From contig JALOOU010000001.1 in assembly GCA_025454255.1 (NCBI GenBank), positions 58,316 through 122,315 of the forward strand: 64,000 bases of DNA. Direction: 5' to 3'. How positions within the stretch are numbered: position 1 is the first letter of the stretch; every line of letters starts with the position of its first letter. The position numbers and the translations under genes are program-made. Positions 45,018-63,552 of the stretch are shown here, one piece after another. Under the pieces are notes generated by a model. That model was not told the origin of the DNA. It worked only from the letters and a program-made list of their open reading frames with translations, and did no database searches. This DNA is from Desulfobacterales bacterium (GTDB taxonomy: Bacteria; Desulfobacterota; Desulfobacteria; Desulfobacterales; SpSt-501).

Positions 45018-45161
45018 TTCCGATGGAAAAGCCGAAGATAGATTCTGCCCCAGTTAAGCGGGATGACACCCGGCATTGATTTCAACATAATGGAATGATA
45101 TTGGATTTTTATCGGGGGTGCGGAACGGCCTCCGGCATCAACTCCTGCGCAGGCGCATCCC

Positions 45162-47055: not shown

Positions 47056-47354
47056 GGGTGTTCTCCTTGCAGCGATAAGCTTACTTTATTGAATTGATTA
47101 ATATTTCAATCTCAATTGGCGATCATAGAAGGCATCGGCAACCGTGTCAAGGATCAGCCGGAAAACCTCCCGCGCCGCAATCCATATCGGAGAAACCGGC
47201 CGGGAACTTTAGCGGAATTTCGGCCGGTCCGCCGCCGGCGACAACCCGCAGCCGGATGATTCTTTTTTTGTGGACAAACGCCGGCGCATGGTTATAATAC
47301 GGCAGATAATTAAAGCGGGGTCGAACTTAAAATTCAAAAAGGAGGATTTTGAGA

Positions 47355-47561
47355 ATGAAAAGACTGATGTTGGTTTTGATGGCTGTCTTGCTGATCGCCG
47401 GTTGCACCTCTGAATTCTACAAACACGACTCGCTCTTCAAAACAAACTCCCACGCCGCTTTCAGCTGGTGGGGCTACAAGAGCGTCAATGCCGATCATGC
47501 CAAGATGTCGGCCGAGCAGGGCTGGTGGGGCAAGGAAATCCCGTACGTCCCCGCCAAGTAA
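47355..47561 (+). CDS. small lipoprotein (68 aa), function unknown
   Basis: ATG at 47355, 9 nt after GGAGG. Leader MKRLMLVLMAVLLIAGC (lipobox LIAGC). Trp/Gly-rich mature part. Confidence 0.55.
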   Translation: MKRLMLVLMAVLLIAGCTSEFYKHDSLFKTNSHAAFSWWGYKSVNADHAKMSAEQGWWGKEIPYVPAK

Positions 47562-47590
47562 TCCCATTCGCGCAGAACCCGCTGATCGAT

Positions 47591-47627
47591 AAAAAGAGGC
47601 CGGATCGTTCGATCCAGCCTCTTTTTG
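47591..47627 (+). terminator. rho-independent terminator after the small lipoprotein gene
   Basis: Stem AAAGAGGCCGGATC / GATCCaGCCTCTTT with a GTTC loop, followed by TTTG. Confidence 0.6.
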
Positions 47628-47711
47628 CGTGCGGTCTTGCCCCCCGGCATGCACCGACCCGTGCATCGGCGGCGAGGCCGGCGACGATCGCAGGTTGCCG
47701 GGTACATACGC

Positions 47712-47868
47712 GAAAAGTGGCTTCAAAACCCCGTCTAGCGGCTGGGGGTCCCGCCCCGGCGGGATGGCGGGCCCCGCGAACGTGCGCACCACCGATCAAG
47801 GTCGCGGCGCGTTCGATTCGGCCTCCCGTTTTGCCAGCAACCGTGATCCGAGATTGAGATCACTTCTA
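47712..47868 (+). repeat. copy A of a ~155-nt intergenic repeat element (possible structured RNA or MITE-like unit)
   Basis: Aligns with the reverse complement of 54981-55136 at roughly 84% identity over ~145 nt with one 1-nt indel. The ends are mutually complementary (AAGTGG...CACTT). Confidence 0.6.
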
Positions 47869-47885
47869 CCCATCGAGGATGGCAC

Positions 47886-50741
47886 ATGCGAAGGCGTTCT
47901 TGGATAGGCCTGTGCGCGGGTCTTTTCGTTATGGCGGCCGCTCCGGCGCCGGCCTCGGACCTCATCCAGGTTTCGACCCCCGGCCTGCCATCGGCGATCA
48001 GCGTCGAGCGCCTGGCGGGCCCGCAGCAGGCGGTTCTGTCGGTGCGCGACCCGAACGGCGAACCGATAGTGGGGCTCGGCCCCCGGAGCTTCGCGCTGGG
48101 GCATGGAATCCGCAAGGCGCGGGTGCTTTCCGCCGAACCGATTCAAGCCGACCAAGCCCTTCCCGTCAACCTGGTGCTGGTGATCGACAACTCCTTTTCC
48201 ATGCAGGAGCGGGGGGCGATCCCGCCCCTGCTGGCTGGGCTGGATGACCTTTTGAAGGATGTGCGGCCGATCGACAACATCCACGCGGTTGTCTTCAGCG
48301 AGCGGGGGATGAGCGTCGCGGGACGCAGCCTGAACGTGCGCACCTTCACCTCCAGCAGGGCATCGGAATGGAGCCGCTTTTTCGCCGAGGCCTTCGACAA
48401 GGGCATCACGCGCCGGACCTTCCTCTATGAGGCCGTCGCGGCCGGTTTGGAGATCGTTAAAACCATGCCGGCCGACGAGCAGAAGCTGATGATGGTCTTT
48501 TCGGACGGGGAGGATCTGAACAGCAAGATCGGCGCGGCGGCGGTCGCCGCCGGCCTGCCCGACCTCAAAAAATTTTGGGCGTTTGCCATCGACTATATGC
48601 CCGGGGAGAAGACGGACGCTTTTTTATCGAGCTTTGCCGCAAGCCATGGCGGACGGATCTGGAAAGCTCGCTCCGCCGCTGAGCTGAGCCCGATCTTTCG
48701 CTCATTCAAGACCGCCGTGCGACACAACTACCTGCTGACCTATGAACTGCTGAACCCGGTCGCGCTGGAGCCCAAGCGCCTGAGCTTCGAGCGGCTCACC
48801 ACCTCCACGGGCCGCCCGGCGGCCGCCATGGTGTTTTTCCATACCCATCGCGATCAACTTCCTGAGGCCTATGCCCTGCTCGGCTCTCCCGCCGCGGCGG
48901 ACGCCTTCCGGCCCGACGACCTGAAGGGCGCCCTGGAACGCTATTTCAATGTCCTGAACATCATCGGCAAAACGTTGCGCGAGGCGCCGGGGTCACGGAT
49001 AGGGATCATCGGCTGCACGTCGGACACCGGGCCCGAAAAAAACAACCTTGCGCTGGCCCAAGGCCGCGCCGAGGCCGTGAAAACCTACCTTGAGCGCATT
49101 TGGGGCATCGCCCCGGAGCGCATGCGGGTTGAAGCCCGCGGTCTGCCGGCCGATCCATCACCCTCCGACACCCGCGCAGGGCGGCTGGAAAACCAGCGGG
49201 TCGAGTTCATCTTCAGCTCGGAGGCCGCCCGCGCGCGCGTTCTCGGCGGCCTGATCGCAGAGGCCGAAAATCAACGCGCACTCTCCGTGAGACTCGACCT
49301 TCACCCTCTGCCGGGGATCGCCGGCTTCGAAGTCACGCTGCGGGGCGAAGAGCGGGTGCTGCACACCCTGGCTGCCGCCGCCGGACCCCAGCCCGCCTAT
49401 TCCATTCCGCTGGATGCCATCGGCCGGGAGCGGCTCGCGTCCCTGAATGCGATCGAGGCCGTGCTGCGCGTCACGGACGCATCGGGCCGGGTGCACGAGG
49501 CCGCCTCGGACCTCTGCCACCTCAAAACCGCCTCACGGGAGCTGATCCATGAAATCGGGCACCCCCCCTACGGCACGATCCGGCTGGAGCCGAGCCCTCT
49601 GACGGTGGAGGAAATCACCGTGGTCGAAAGCTCCCCCCTGCTTCACCACGTCTATTTCGAAGCCGGCCGCGCCGACATCCCGGAACGCTACCATCGGTTC
49701 ACCTCAGCCGCAGCCGCCTCCGGCTTTGATGAAAAAACGCTCCAGGGCACGATGGATAAGTACCGCCACGTGCTCGACATCATCGGCAAGCGCGCCGCGG
49801 AGCGTCCGCGGGCGCGGATCACGCTCACCGGCTGCCACTCCGATTCCGGGGAAGAGAAAGGCGATCTTAGGCTCTCGCGCCGCCGGGCAGAATCGGTCAG
49901 CGCCTATTTGAAAACCGTCTGGGGCATCGATTCGTCGCGGTTGCAGATAGAGGCCCGCGGGCTACCGGCGGCGGCGAGCACCCCCGGTAGCGCGGAGGGG
50001 CGGGCCGAAAACCAGCGGGTCGAAATCGCAGCGGACGACCCAGCCGTCCTCGACACCGTCCAAAGCACCCGCCTCGAGGCTGCCAGCGACACCGATCGCG
50101 TCCGGATCATCCCCGCAGTGGAAGAGGGCCTGCGCTTGAAGCGCTGGCGCATCGCGATCTACGGCGATGGAAACCGCCTCGAAGCCCTCGACGGCGAGGG
50201 GGATCTGGAGCCAAGCTATGTTCTGGCGCTGAAGGACGTGGGGCTGTTGAATCTCGGCCGGCACCAGACGATCACCGCTGAGCTGGAAGGCGAAGATGCC
50301 GCGGGCCGGCGGCTGCAGGTGCAGGACCGGGCCGAAGTGCGCCTTGTTCGGCGCGAAGAGCTTCGCGCGCGCCGGGAGGGCTACCGGGTGATCGAAAAAT
50401 ATGCGCTCATTCTCTTCGACTTCAACCGCGCCGATATCAAGGAGCGCAACCGGGTGCTGGTCGACCGCATCGGCGCGCGGCTGGGGCAGCAGCCTGCGGC
50501 CGTGGTCAAGATCGTGGGCCACACCGACCACATCGGCGGCGGCGACTACAACCTGGCGCTCTCCGCCAGGAGGGCCAAGGCCGTCTTCGACCTGCTGGCG
50601 GCCGGGGGCGCCTCCGCGCAGGGACGCATCTCCCATGAGGGCAAGGGGTCGGCCGACCCGCTTTATGACAACCGCCTGCCTGAAGGCCGGGCCTACAATC
50701 GCACGGTATCCGTGACCCTGGAATATGGGCAGAAACCGTAG
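47886..50741 (+). CDS. secreted VWA-domain protein with three OmpA-like (peptidoglycan-binding) domains
   Basis: Signal peptide (GLFVMAAAPAPASD). VWA MIDAS-like LVIDNSFSM and VFSDGED. Three OmpA-like modules at about nt 48936-49215, 49752-50030 and 50413-50725 (NLALAQGRAEAV...NQRVEF; LRLSRRRAESV...NQRVEI; GHTDHIGGGDYNLALSARRAKAV...NRTVSV). Confidence 0.85.
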   Translation: MRRRSWIGLCAGLFVMAAAPAPASDLIQVSTPGLPSAISVERLAGPQQAVLSVRDPNGEPIVGLGPRSFALGHGIRKARVLSAEPIQADQALPVNLVLVIDNSFSMQERGAIPPLLAGLDDLLKDVRPIDNIHAVVFSERGMSVAGRSLNVRTFTSSRASEWSRFFAEAFDKGITRRTFLYEAVAAGLEIVKTMPADEQKLMMVFSDGEDLNSKIGAAAVAAGLPDLKKFWAFAIDYMPGEKTDAFLSSFAASHGGRIWKARSAAELSPIFRSFKTAVRHNYLLTYELLNPVALEPKRLSFERLTTSTGRPAAAMVFFHTHRDQLPEAYALLGSPAAADAFRPDDLKGALERYFNVLNIIGKTLREAPGSRIGIIGCTSDTGPEKNNLALAQGRAEAVKTYLERIWGIAPERMRVEARGLPADPSPSDTRAGRLENQRVEFIFSSEAARARVLGGLIAEAENQRALSVRLDLHPLPGIAGFEVTLRGEERVLHTLAAAAGPQPAYSIPLDAIGRERLASLNAIEAVLRVTDASGRVHEAASDLCHLKTASRELIHEIGHPPYGTIRLEPSPLTVEEITVVESSPLLHHVYFEAGRADIPERYHRFTSAAAASGFDEKTLQGTMDKYRHVLDIIGKRAAERPRARITLTGCHSDSGEEKGDLRLSRRRAESVSAYLKTVWGIDSSRLQIEARGLPAAASTPGSAEGRAENQRVEIAADDPAVLDTVQSTRLEAASDTDRVRIIPAVEEGLRLKRWRIAIYGDGNRLEALDGEGDLEPSYVLALKDVGLLNLGRHQTITAELEGEDAAGRRLQVQDRAEVRLVRREELRARREGYRVIEKYALILFDFNRADIKERNRVLVDRIGARLGQQPAAVVKIVGHTDHIGGGDYNLALSARRAKAVFDLLAAGGASAQGRISHEGKGSADPLYDNRLPEGRAYNRTVSVTLEYGQKP

Positions 50742-53535: not shown

Positions 53536-54939
53536 ATGGCTGCTTTAGCGAAACATGAGACCGCTTCCACGGCGGACGAGCGCTGGTCGGCGTTGGCGGT
53601 GGCCTCGCTGGGCTCGTTTCTGACCCCCTTCATGCTCTCATCGGTCAACATCGCGCTGCCGACCATCGGCCGGGAATTTGAGGTCGACGCCGTGCTCCTG
53701 AGCTGGGTGGCCACCTCCTACCTTCTCGCCGCCGCCGTGGCGCTTCTGCCGTTCGGCAGGCTAGCCGACATCCACGGCCGCAAGAGGGTGCAGCTGTGCG
53801 GCATGGCGCTTTTCACCCTCTCCTCCCTTCTCGCCGGGCTGGCGGGGTCGGTGCACAGCCTGATCCTGTTCCGTGTTTTCCAGGGGACGGGGATCGCCAT
53901 GATCTTTGCCACCGGCATCGCCATTTTGGCATCGGTCTTTCCGGTCGGCGAACGCGGGCGGGTGCTGGGCATCACCGTGGCGGCGGTCTACTCCGGGCTC
54001 GCCTGCGGACCGCTGGCGGGCGGGTGGCTGACCCAGCAGTTCTCGTGGCGCGCGGTCTTCCTGATCAGCGCCCTGACGGGGCTTGTGCCGATCGGATTGA
54101 TCCTGTGGAAGCTGAAGGGCGAGTGGGCCGACGCCCGGGGCGAATCCTTCGACCTCACCGGCGCGCTCATCTACGGGGGCGCGGTCGTCGCCTTCATGGT
54201 GGGCGCCTCGGACCTGCCGCGCCCCCGGGGCGCCGCCCTGGCCCTCGGGGGGCTATTCGCTTTCGGCGCGTTCGCGTGGTGGGAGCTGCGGGTGCGGCAC
54301 CCCGTGTTCGAGGTGCGCCTGCTCCTTGGCAACCGCGTGTTCGCCTTTTCGTGTCTAGCGGCGCTGGTCCACTACAGCGCGACCTTCGGCGTGACGTTTC
54401 TCATCAGCCTTTTTCTTCAGTACGTTCAGGGGCTCTCGCCGCAGGGCGCCGGTCTGGCCCTGATCGCCCAGCCGGTCATGATGGCCCTCTTCTCGCCCTT
54501 CGCCGGCAGGCTCTCCGACCGGGTGGAACCCCGGGTGATCGCCTCCCTCGGCATGGGGATCACGGCGGCCGGGCTGCTGCTGTTGTGCACGGTGTCCGCG
54601 GGCACGAGCACCGCCTTTGTTGTCGGCTGCCTGACGGCGCTGGGCTGCGGGTTCGGCCTGTTTTCATCCCCCAACATGAACGCCATCATGGGCTCGGTGG
54701 AGCGCAAGCACTACGGGATCGCCTCCGGGTCGGTCGGCACGATGCGGCTGTTGGGGCAGATTTTGTCGATGGCCATAGCGACGCTGATGTTCGCCGTTTT
54801 TATCGGCCGGGAGCAGATCACCCCCGCACACCAGACGGCGTTCATACACAGTGTGCGCATGGCGCTCTTGGTTTTTTTCGGGCTCTGCCTGTGCGGGGTC
54901 TTCTTCTCGTTGTCGCGGGGGCGCCTGCATGCGAGGTAG
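53536..54939 (+). CDS. MFS transporter (DHA2/EmrB-like, about 14 TM helices)
   Basis: Polytopic protein with MFS motif A-like GRLADIHGRKRV. The 467-aa length is typical of 14-TMS drug:H+ antiporters. Confidence 0.85.
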   Translation: MAALAKHETASTADERWSALAVASLGSFLTPFMLSSVNIALPTIGREFEVDAVLLSWVATSYLLAAAVALLPFGRLADIHGRKRVQLCGMALFTLSSLLAGLAGSVHSLILFRVFQGTGIAMIFATGIAILASVFPVGERGRVLGITVAAVYSGLACGPLAGGWLTQQFSWRAVFLISALTGLVPIGLILWKLKGEWADARGESFDLTGALIYGGAVVAFMVGASDLPRPRGAALALGGLFAFGAFAWWELRVRHPVFEVRLLLGNRVFAFSCLAALVHYSATFGVTFLISLFLQYVQGLSPQGAGLALIAQPVMMALFSPFAGRLSDRVEPRVIASLGMGITAAGLLLLCTVSAGTSTAFVVGCLTALGCGFGLFSSPNMNAIMGSVERKHYGIASGSVGTMRLLGQILSMAIATLMFAVFIGREQITPAHQTAFIHSVRMALLVFFGLCLCGVFFSLSRGRLHAR

Positions 54940-54980
54940 CCGGCCGCGCCCGGACGTCGCCGGCGCGCCGTTTGGAGGCT

Positions 54981-55136
54981 ATAAGTGGTTTCCCAACCCC
55001 GGATCACGGTTGCGGGCAAAGGGCAGGCCGAATCGAAAGCGCAGCAACCTTAACGGGTTGTGAGCACGTTCGCGAGGCCTGCAATCCCGCCACGGCGGGC
55101 CCCCCCGCCGTCAGACGGGGTGATGAAGCCACTTCT
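54981..55136 (-). repeat. copy B (inverted) of the ~155-nt intergenic repeat element
   Basis: The reverse complement aligns with 47712-47868 (see copy A). The element starts at the TAG stop of the HD gene at 55135-55716. Confidence 0.6.
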
Positions 55137-55716
55137 ATGCAACGTTTCCCTTGAGGCCAATCTCGCCGGCCGCGGTCCGCATCCCGCGGATCGTCTCGGT
55201 GATGAGCTCGGTCAGGTCCACCCCCAGCATCGCCGCCCCCTTCTCGATGATGGAGCGGTCCACACCGGCGGCGAAGCGCTTGTCCTTCCACTTCTTCTTC
55301 ACCGATGCCGCCTCCAGGTCGAGGACGCTTTTGGAGGGCCGGACCAACGCTGCGGTGGCAACCAGCCCGGTGAGCTCATCGACGGCGAAAAGCACCTTTT
55401 CCAGTTCGCTGCGCGGTTCGACCTCCGAGCAGATCCCCCAGCCGTGGCTCACCACGGCGCGAATGATCTCCTCCGGCCAGCGGCGCCGGCGCAGGATCTC
55501 TTCGCTCTTGCGGCAATGCTGGTCGGGGAATTGCTCATAGTCCAGATCGTGGACGAGGCCCACGATTGCCCATTTTTCTTCGTCCTCGCCCCGCCGCCGG
55601 GCGAAGTGGCGCATGACCGCCTCGACCGAAAGCGCGTGCCGGATCAGGCTCTCACTGCGGTTGTACTCCCGCAGGAGCGCCAGCGCGTCCTCGCGGGTCG
55701 GTTCCTCAGAACTCAT
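55135..55716 (-). CDS. HD superfamily phosphohydrolase (about 190 aa, HDIG-like)
   Basis: HALSVEAVMRHF ... GLVHDLDYE ... SHGW. Start set at MSSEEP (GGGAGGGG RBS 4-5 nt upstream). Confidence 0.75.
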   Translation of the reverse strand: MSSEEPTREDALALLREYNRSESLIRHALSVEAVMRHFARRRGEDEEKWAIVGLVHDLDYEQFPDQHCRKSEEILRRRRWPEEIIRAVVSHGWGICSEVEPRSELEKVLFAVDELTGLVATAALVRPSKSVLDLEAASVKKKWKDKRFAAGVDRSIIEKGAAMLGVDLTELITETIRGMRTAAGEIGLKGNVA

Positions 55717-55734
55717 CCATCCCCTCCCGGGCAC

Positions 55735-55775
55735 ACCTTCGTGCCGGGGCATTCAGGATGCCCCGGCACGAAGGT
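55735..55775. repeat. perfect 18-bp inverted repeat with a 5-nt spacer in the divergent HD / IMPase intergenic region
   Basis: ACCTTCGTGCCGGGGCAT-TCAGG-ATGCCCCGGCACGAAGGT, read directly from the sequence. Confidence 0.75.
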
Positions 55776-63245: not shown

Positions 63246-63552
63246 AGCTTTTTTTTCACAATTCGTTGCATTTTTCAAAAACCACGCGATTGCCTTCCGG
63301 ATACATTTTCGATATTATTCCGGCAGCAAAGCACCTTTCACGCACGCTAGGCGTATTCCTGCGGAAATCCCGCCGGGGCGGGACCGCGATCGGATCGCGG
63401 CTGCAAGCCGCTGCCAAAAAATCCGAAATTGCCTGCCGACGAACCGCCGGCGCAGGCGGCGTGCAACGCTTCAAACGGCCCATCGGCAGCCCAGGCCGGT
63501 GGCAGAGAGGCCCCCGACATGCGCAACACTCCACCAGCGAACATCGAAGGGT

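Follow-up and report, generated by a model that had tools for sequence, protein, structure and literature searches.

A G+C-rich, TA-duplicating repeat of uncultured Desulfobacterales with the organization of a bacterial MITE

The window analyzed here, a 64,000-nucleotide stretch of one contig from a Desulfobacterales bacterium, contains two copies of a short element in inverted orientation. We conclude, with a probability of about 0.88, that the element is a non-coding MITE and that the two copies are independent insertions rather than examples of a new RNA gene. An earlier note, made from the letters of the window, had described the pair and had offered two readings: a structured small RNA or cis-regulatory leader, or a REP/MITE-like repeat family. 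The MITE part of the second reading is borne out by inverted termini, TA duplication, dispersed copies, and polymorphism among relatives; the REP part does not fit the long non-palindromic interior. The note had also named many copies with target-site duplications as an outcome favoring a MITE over an RNA, and that is the outcome we obtained.

The repeat itself is real. When positions 47690-47890 of the forward strand were aligned with the reverse complement of 54960-55160 using MAFFT, 47712-47868 (+) matched 54980-55137 (-) at 85% column identity. All of the identical blocks listed earlier were recovered in this alignment, and similarity had sharp edges at the AAGTGG start and the CACTT end, the termini being inverted. 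The 22-nt head motif AAGTGGCTTCANNACCCCGTCT occurs exactly twice in the window (0.00 expected from shuffles), and an nhmmer profile found no third copy there. Open reading frames called across the copies (e.g., 47468-47857, 47629-47907, 54711-55019, and 55004-55291) are spurious, as had been suspected. The description of both copies as non-coding holds as far as their intergenic location is concerned, but it needs one amendment: the 5' TA of copy B (55137-55136) falls within the TAG stop codon of an HD-domain gene. The boundaries are given in Table 1.

Table 1. Coordinates of the two element copies and of a third, unoccupied site in the window
Feature	Positions	Strand	Remarks
Third site, unoccupied TA (approximate)	45110..45111		Upstream of 442-aa gene; filled in L038
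Copy A, degenerated 5' target-site duplication	47712..47713	+	GA, consensus TA; all other aligned copies have TA
MITE copy A, body	47714..47866	+	153 bp, 65% GC; termini matching at 13/24
Copy A, 5' terminal inverted repeat	47714..47732	+	AAAGTGGCTTCAAAACCCC
Copy A, 3' terminal inverted repeat	47848..47866	+	Degenerate: ...GAGATTGAGATCACTTC
Copy A, 3' TA target-site duplication	47867..47868	+	17 nt upstream of OmpA-like ATG (47886)
Copy B, 3'-end TA target-site duplication	54980..54981	-	From filled/empty site alignment
MITE copy B, body	54982..55135	-	154 bp, 64% GC; termini matching at 17/24
Copy B, 5'-end TA target-site duplication	55136..55137	-	With first element base G (55135) forms TAG stop of HD-domain gene

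Copy A is flanked upstream by a small lipoprotein-like gene (47349-47561, +) with its conserved intrinsic terminator and downstream by a gene for a 951-aa protein with three OmpA domains; the reported gap of 17 nt between the end of the copy and the OmpA-like start codon was confirmed. Across the four syntenic relatives described below, the terminator (47590-47625, GAGGCCGGATCGTTCGATCCAGCCTCTTTTT) hardly varies, although the remaining spacer has diverged. A search of the region 47300-48000 found no sigma-70 promoter or intrinsic terminator consensus inside copy A; in an informal look for sigma-54 by eye, the spacing was one base off. Because copy A is located between the upstream terminator and the ribosome-binding site, and because no sigma-70-like promoter was detected, it probably lies in the 5' untranslated region (UTR) of the OmpA-like gene. 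It is the older, more diverged of the two copies, and at its 5' edge the copy alignment shows a change of T to G in the TA followed by a change of G to A at the next base. Copy B lies between the convergent genes of an MFS transporter (53536-54939, +) and the HD-domain protein (55135-55752, -), probably in the 3' UTRs of both, and the convergence of these genes leaves it with no downstream gene to regulate on its own strand.

Taken across copies, the layout of the element is TA|GAAGTGGYTTCA...TGAAACCACTTC|TA. The terminal inverted repeats are about 19 bp long, perfect or near-perfect in consensus copies (GAAGTGGYTTCAWAACC) and identical at the two ends of the L009 copy (TAGAACTGGTTTCAAAACC), and a weaker inverted repeat continues beyond them to about 35 bp. 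In copies from elsewhere, similarity stops sharply at TA-GAAGTGG and CCACTTC-TA. The base inside the TA is constant (G or C) across 13 junctions or copies and the base outside varies, from which it follows that the duplicated target is exactly TA. The body is about 152 bp, and five of the six consensus frames hold stops; the sole stop-free frame (antisense, 52 aa) had no homologue among 5.8 billion proteins, and that search harvested no further copies. Element G+C content (64 to 65%) matches that of the window (64%), and the A+T-rich composition that is typical of MITEs, but does not define them, is absent.

Two further features of the interior can be recorded here. The central hairpin shares only a 9-nt exact match (TCACAACCT) with the terminus, and its interpretation as a nested terminus-like pair was unconvincing, given that 46 of 1,000 shuffles scored as well. 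A GC hairpin of the form CCCGCC-NN-GGCGGG is present three times in the window (0.08 expected); two occurrences (47750-47763 and 55086-55099) are an optional 11-nt module inside the MITE copies, and the third (63369-63382) stands alone and matches copy A exactly over 19 nt.

Contigs from close relatives made it possible to compare filled and empty sites. Four syntenic contigs (L038 to L041) with shared gene order were found via homologues of the OmpA-like protein (81 to 85% amino acid identity), and both window sites are empty in them. The intergenic region upstream of the OmpA-like gene measures 324 nt in the window versus 174 to 216 nt in these relatives, and the spacer between the MFS and HD-domain genes measures 195 nt versus 38 to 41 nt. 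At site B, the window reads GGAGGC-TA-element-TA-TGCAACGTTTCCC, and the empty site reads GC-TA-CGTGGCGTTTCCC in L038 and GC-TA-CGAGGCGCTCCC in L039. A single TA at the empty site, compared with TA-element-TA at the filled one, identifies the TA as the target-site duplication. Site B is a precise insertion with TA duplication, and the dinucleotide that it targeted belonged to the TAG stop of the HD-domain gene; since the first base of the element is G, the stop codon was rebuilt and the insertion was neutral for the protein. Site A is likewise empty in all four relatives, but mutation of its 5' TA to GA and divergence of the intergenic DNA of the relatives make its junction less clean than that of site B.

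A third site shows the opposite pattern. L038 carries a copy (L038:1-56) about 45 nt upstream of a 442-aa gene, at a site left unoccupied in both the window and L039; L038 reads ...GGGGTTATGAAACCAGTTC-TA-GTGGTGCGGTTCGG, and the window reads TTTTTA-TCGGGGGTGCGGAACGG. One junction is visible at this site because the L038 contig begins inside the element. The L038 copy is absent from the window and the window copies are absent from L038, so that presence and absence differ in both directions. These contigs differ in gene content as well: an extra GNAT acetyltransferase gene is found between the OmpA-like and HtrA-like protease genes in L040 (7311-7832) and L041 (4339-4860) and is absent from the window, L038, and L039.

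The same relatives bear on the idea that the two copies are the ends of a composite transposon or of an invertible 7.4-kb segment holding the OmpA-like, protease, Dus, and MFS genes. Inverted copies do bracket 47.7 to 55.1 kb, as such a unit would have it, but in relatives with neither copy the genes of the segment and of its flanks are arranged in the same order and direction. Moreover, two termini and a pair of TA duplications are counted separately for each copy, and identity between the copies is no higher than 85%. Unchanged synteny in the relatives and separate duplications indicate that the copies are not a composite or invertible unit, and we hold this explanation to be extremely improbable.

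Beyond the immediate relatives, a genome scan with an exact two-block pattern (one genome per species) detected six true copies, spread over four other Desulfobacterales/Desulfobacteraceae MAGs, and a metagenome scan (JGI) with a different two-block pattern detected six true copies among 27 matches. Three genome-scan matches (L002, L004, and L006) and the other 21 metagenome-scan matches had no wider similarity to the element and were due to chance, as were nine of ten terminus matches on viral contigs. BLASTN searches of PLSDB plasmids and INPHARED phages in distant mode returned no match to the consensus. Altogether, the element occupies at least 14 loci in four further MAGs and several metagenomes, among them metagenomes from sediment, in unrelated surroundings. 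Within one metagenome set, the elements on L015, L016, L027, L034, and L036 are 100% identical, and no fewer than five different sequences flank them; several contigs also have their break within the element; identical copies with different flanks and contigs that end inside the element are typical of a recently amplified repeat.

Neighboring genes are not constant, and copies occur in both orientations relative to them. One copy (L009:6699-6932) abuts the first nucleotide of a tRNA-Arg(CCG) gene in the opposite orientation and is therefore located between that gene and whatever promoter it had; another, on L027, lies about 30 nt upstream of a start codon. On L005, the upstream open reading frame ends in a TAA that starts in the TA of the element and runs into the first element bases, which, with copy B, makes two stop-codon insertions. 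TA dinucleotides in the window are at 0.42 of expectation, and CTAG occurs 8 times in the 64 kb versus 212 expected. This scarcity of TA may cause insertions to cluster at gene boundaries and stop codons.

Several size variants were also found. Forms of 145 or 146 nt (L034, L008, L038, and L064) are without the 11-nt GC hairpin, and a 100-nt form (L027:1691-1792) has the same termini and a different interior. A 143-nt, A+T-richer form with the same termini was found on L054. The termini are thus the common denominator of variants that differ inside, as expected if a transposase recognizes the termini. A 111-nt form, again with the same termini and a different interior, is present on an IMG/VR contig classed as viral (UViG_3300033149_003895; L049:2848-2958). 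On L010, a 75-nt 3' remnant lies between birA and a gene for a PEP-utilizing enzyme; this locus had been considered as the end of a parent insertion sequence (IS) and was rejected as such.

How do these observations fit an RNA reading of the kind first proposed in the earlier note? Under it, a small RNA gene with a defined structure, or the 5' leader of the OmpA-like gene, would have undergone a single duplication in this genome. In its favor, copy A ends 17 nt ahead of a start codon, a stable multi-stem fold is predicted (a long closing stem plus interior hairpins in each copy), and there is some covariation. However, the same gene in four syntenic relatives has a 5' region without the element, no gene follows copy B on its own strand, and copies at other loci border unrelated genes in one orientation or the other. 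Sharp edges with TA duplication, and identical copies with different flanks, also count against a gene or leader. Rfam gave no match at gathering thresholds over the whole window, in line with what had been noted before, and only chance-level matches (E > 4) to each copy at permissive thresholds; for copy A, the absence of promoter and terminator consensus in 47300-48000 points the same way. Fold z-scores were -3.8 (sense) and -5.3 (antisense) for copy B and -1.8 on either strand for copy A. That the antisense strand folds as well or better is expected of inverted-repeat DNA, not of a strand-specific RNA. The RNA gene or leader is largely refuted by these results, and we consider it very improbable.

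A subtler possibility is that the element is a MITE whose interior is under selection, as a fold-back or hairpin at the RNA or DNA level or as extra protein-binding sites; one example would be a UTR structure processed by RNase III, as in the Correia elements of Neisseria. If so, the window copies would affect expression of the OmpA-like and HD/MFS genes. Conservation within the element is uneven in a way that agrees with this: mean pairwise identity is 0.83 to 0.84 in the termini, 0.94 to 0.95 in the central hairpin arms and 3' interior, and 0.56 in the 6-nt loop, and among non-window copies none of the 38 hairpin-arm columns vary compared with five of the six loop columns. Both scans demanded exact interior blocks, however, and this ascertainment has partly inflated the interior conservation.

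The divergent copy L064, which came to light next to an IS and without a DNA-pattern filter, keeps its central hairpin through two-sided changes (CAACC/GGTTG to CATAC/GTATG) and its subterminal helix likewise (ACGGCTG/CAACCGT to ACACCCG/CGGGCGT). Over eight sequences the covariation score is 0.098, versus 0.052 ± 0.010 in shuffles (reached in 0 of 500) and at most 0.038 in slid controls. Together with the sense z-score of copy B, these values speak for a functional interior, and neither the conserved 3' interior nor the compensatory changes are predicted by a model of pure junk between two ends. Against this, two-sided changes affect six of 52 pairs, two of them in the termini and the other four, which make up all of the interior compensation, in L064; the count of six is equaled by the control slid by +1. 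Three of the six helices (helices 3 to 5) have no compensatory change, the RNAalifold covariation term is unfavorable (+1.4 to +2), and both strands fold equally well. Concerted change in two arms would also be expected if one protein bound both of them, or if a quasi-palindrome underwent template-switch repair, and variants with unrelated interiors share the termini, which means that this particular interior is unnecessary for mobility.

On balance, we consider a MITE with a selected functional interior unlikely; a selected fold-back in particular is a possibility to which we give the same or slightly less weight. A narrower version, in which the roughly 75-nt 3' interior (the invariant-arm hairpin, its hypervariable loop, and the tail GCCTGCGCCTTGCCCGCAACCGTGATCC) is a selected cargo spread by the MITE, seems to us likewise unlikely. 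If it were true, the cargo could be a portable UTR hairpin or processing site that alters expression of, for example, the OmpA-like gene, or it could be a recognition site; it could also be a landing pad for the IS630-family ISs that often abut the termini.

With a non-coding MITE as the preferred reading, the question becomes which transposase moves it. Strict TA duplication is a hallmark of IS630/Tc1-mariner elements, and we postulate that a DDE transposase of this type mobilizes the element in trans. The TA duplication and the inverted termini are what point to this family, and no parent IS was found: none of the contigs examined carried an autonomous IS with GAAGTGGYTTCA termini, and tblastn found no IS630-type transposase in the window. 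IS630-family elements are nevertheless close at hand, as a 1.15-kb IS encoding a 365-aa protein with DDE_3 and HTH domains lies directly against copies on L027 and L034 and shares the TA with them. Relatives of this IS are very abundant in metagenomes, where they insert at C-TA-G. The termini of the adjoining ISs (TAGTGTTRTGTCCCA, GTGTTRTGTCCCA, and TAGTGTTATGTCCCA) differ from GAAGTGGYTTCA of the element, with which they align unconvincingly, and the neighboring IS (L027/L034 and the P0150 and P0122 variants) was therefore rejected as the parent.

An alternative hypothesis is that the MITE is mobilized from outside IS630/Tc1-mariner, for example by an IS5-family subgroup that makes 2- to 3-bp duplications. 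The missing parent and the differing termini of the adjacent ISs would be compatible with this, but the duplication is strictly TA in 13 of 13 informative junctions and IS630-family elements are active in the same populations. We regard such a mobilizer as improbable.

Several properties of the neighboring ISs deserve description in their own right. They were located at L027:527-1692, at L034:151-1315 (reverse), and on L052 to L061 and L062 to L071, and encode transposases of 362 to 365 aa. In the P0150 and P0122 versions, the transposase open reading frame has no stop of its own, and the TAG is formed by the duplicated TA plus a flanking G. At right-hand junctions of the P0150/L027-type IS, six of seven distinct flanks open with a terminus of the MITE type (GAAGTGGTTTCAAAA; 12/15 or more positions identical), and left-hand flanks are mostly unrelated. 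The junctions with such termini are L054:1187-1329, L058, L059, L060, L027:1691, and L034:132-150, and they were compared with L062 to L071; the P0122 variant has a MITE-type terminus at only one of eight junctions. One possible explanation for this orientation bias is that MITE ends, at which the rare CTAG sites are created, are preferred as targets. In addition, L034:1-150 (reverse complement) consists of a MITE-type terminus, about 113 nt of unrelated sequence, and then GGAGGTGATCCA-ATGGCGCGAACTACCTCG at the contig end, where a ribosome-binding site and ATG are reached about 130 nt into the piece. It could represent the left-hand extremity of the autonomous element that was not found.

The history that we envisage is a simple one. 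The inverted termini would be bound by a transposase encoded at another place in the genome; this enzyme would cut the element out and paste it into a TA, with duplication of the TA on both sides; the duplication is the step that the filled and empty sites show. We read copies A and B as separate insertions of some age, 85% identical and with decayed termini, whose inverted orientation and 7-kb spacing are coincidental. Copy A appears to have inserted downstream of the promoter region of the OmpA-like gene and ahead of its ribosome-binding site, where it would either be transcribed within the 5' UTR or supply the promoter of that gene.

The family, a G+C-rich, TA-duplicating MITE of uncultured Desulfobacterales, is apparently undescribed. 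It is an ordinary kind of genomic parasite and leaves the current understanding of mobile elements unchanged. For annotation, we recommend masking the element as a repeat; its presence explains why contigs in these MAGs break at its sequence, and it can serve as a clean presence/absence marker for telling close relatives apart. In a TA-poor genome it provides an example of insertion at gene boundaries, with the G of copy B visibly rebuilding a TAG stop. Copy A, which would place a fold-back of about 150 nt in the 5' UTR of a conserved outer membrane protein gene, may amount to a natural experiment on UTR structure.

Among known systems, REPs are imperfect palindromes of 20 to 40 nt (REPINs are doublets of these) that have neither TA duplication nor inverted termini. 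The element is like the RAYT-mobilized REPs and REPINs in being short, intergenic, palindromic, and present in many copies, and unlike them in its defined 19-bp inverted termini, TA duplication, and non-palindromic interior of about 110 nt. Palindrome-associated elements derived from IS200/IS605, with subterminal hairpins, have no inverted termini and no duplication, in contrast to the element, which has both. With IS630/Tc1-mariner elements it shares the TA target-site duplication and inverted termini; it differs from them in having no transposase gene, and its GAAGTGGYTTCA termini differ from GTGTTRTGTCCCA of the IS seen.

Bacterial MITEs have been reviewed as elements of <200 bp with inverted termini, 5'-TA-3' ends, and target duplication, and as A+T-rich (PMC2229807). 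Small size, non-coding sequence, inverted termini, duplication seen in filled and empty sites, and dispersed copies were all found here, and a G+C content of 65% sets the family apart from that description. RUP of pneumococcus, a non-coding intergenic element of 107 bp, has inverted termini and duplicates the TA into which it inserts; mobilization by IS630-Spn1 has been proposed for it, and it is often found in or beside IS elements (PMC2229807). The organization is similar in our family, copies of which abut IS630-family ISs, whereas RUP belongs to a different phylum, is A+T-rich, and has termini that match a known IS630 member, whereas a search for a matching IS found none here. Correia elements (NEMIS) of Neisseria come in long (about 155-bp) and short (about 107-bp) forms that differ by an internal block, have TA termini, TA duplication, and inverted repeats of about 24 bp, were defined by filled and empty sites, and give transcripts that fold into long hairpins (PMC2229807). 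The family described here differs from them in its Desulfobacterales hosts and G+C-rich composition, and neither an IHF site nor an outward promoter was identified in 47300-48000. In organization it is like them, with forms of 152 to 158 nt and of 145 nt that differ by an 11-nt internal hairpin, and the probable placement of copy A in a 5' UTR likewise recalls the Correia elements in Neisseria.
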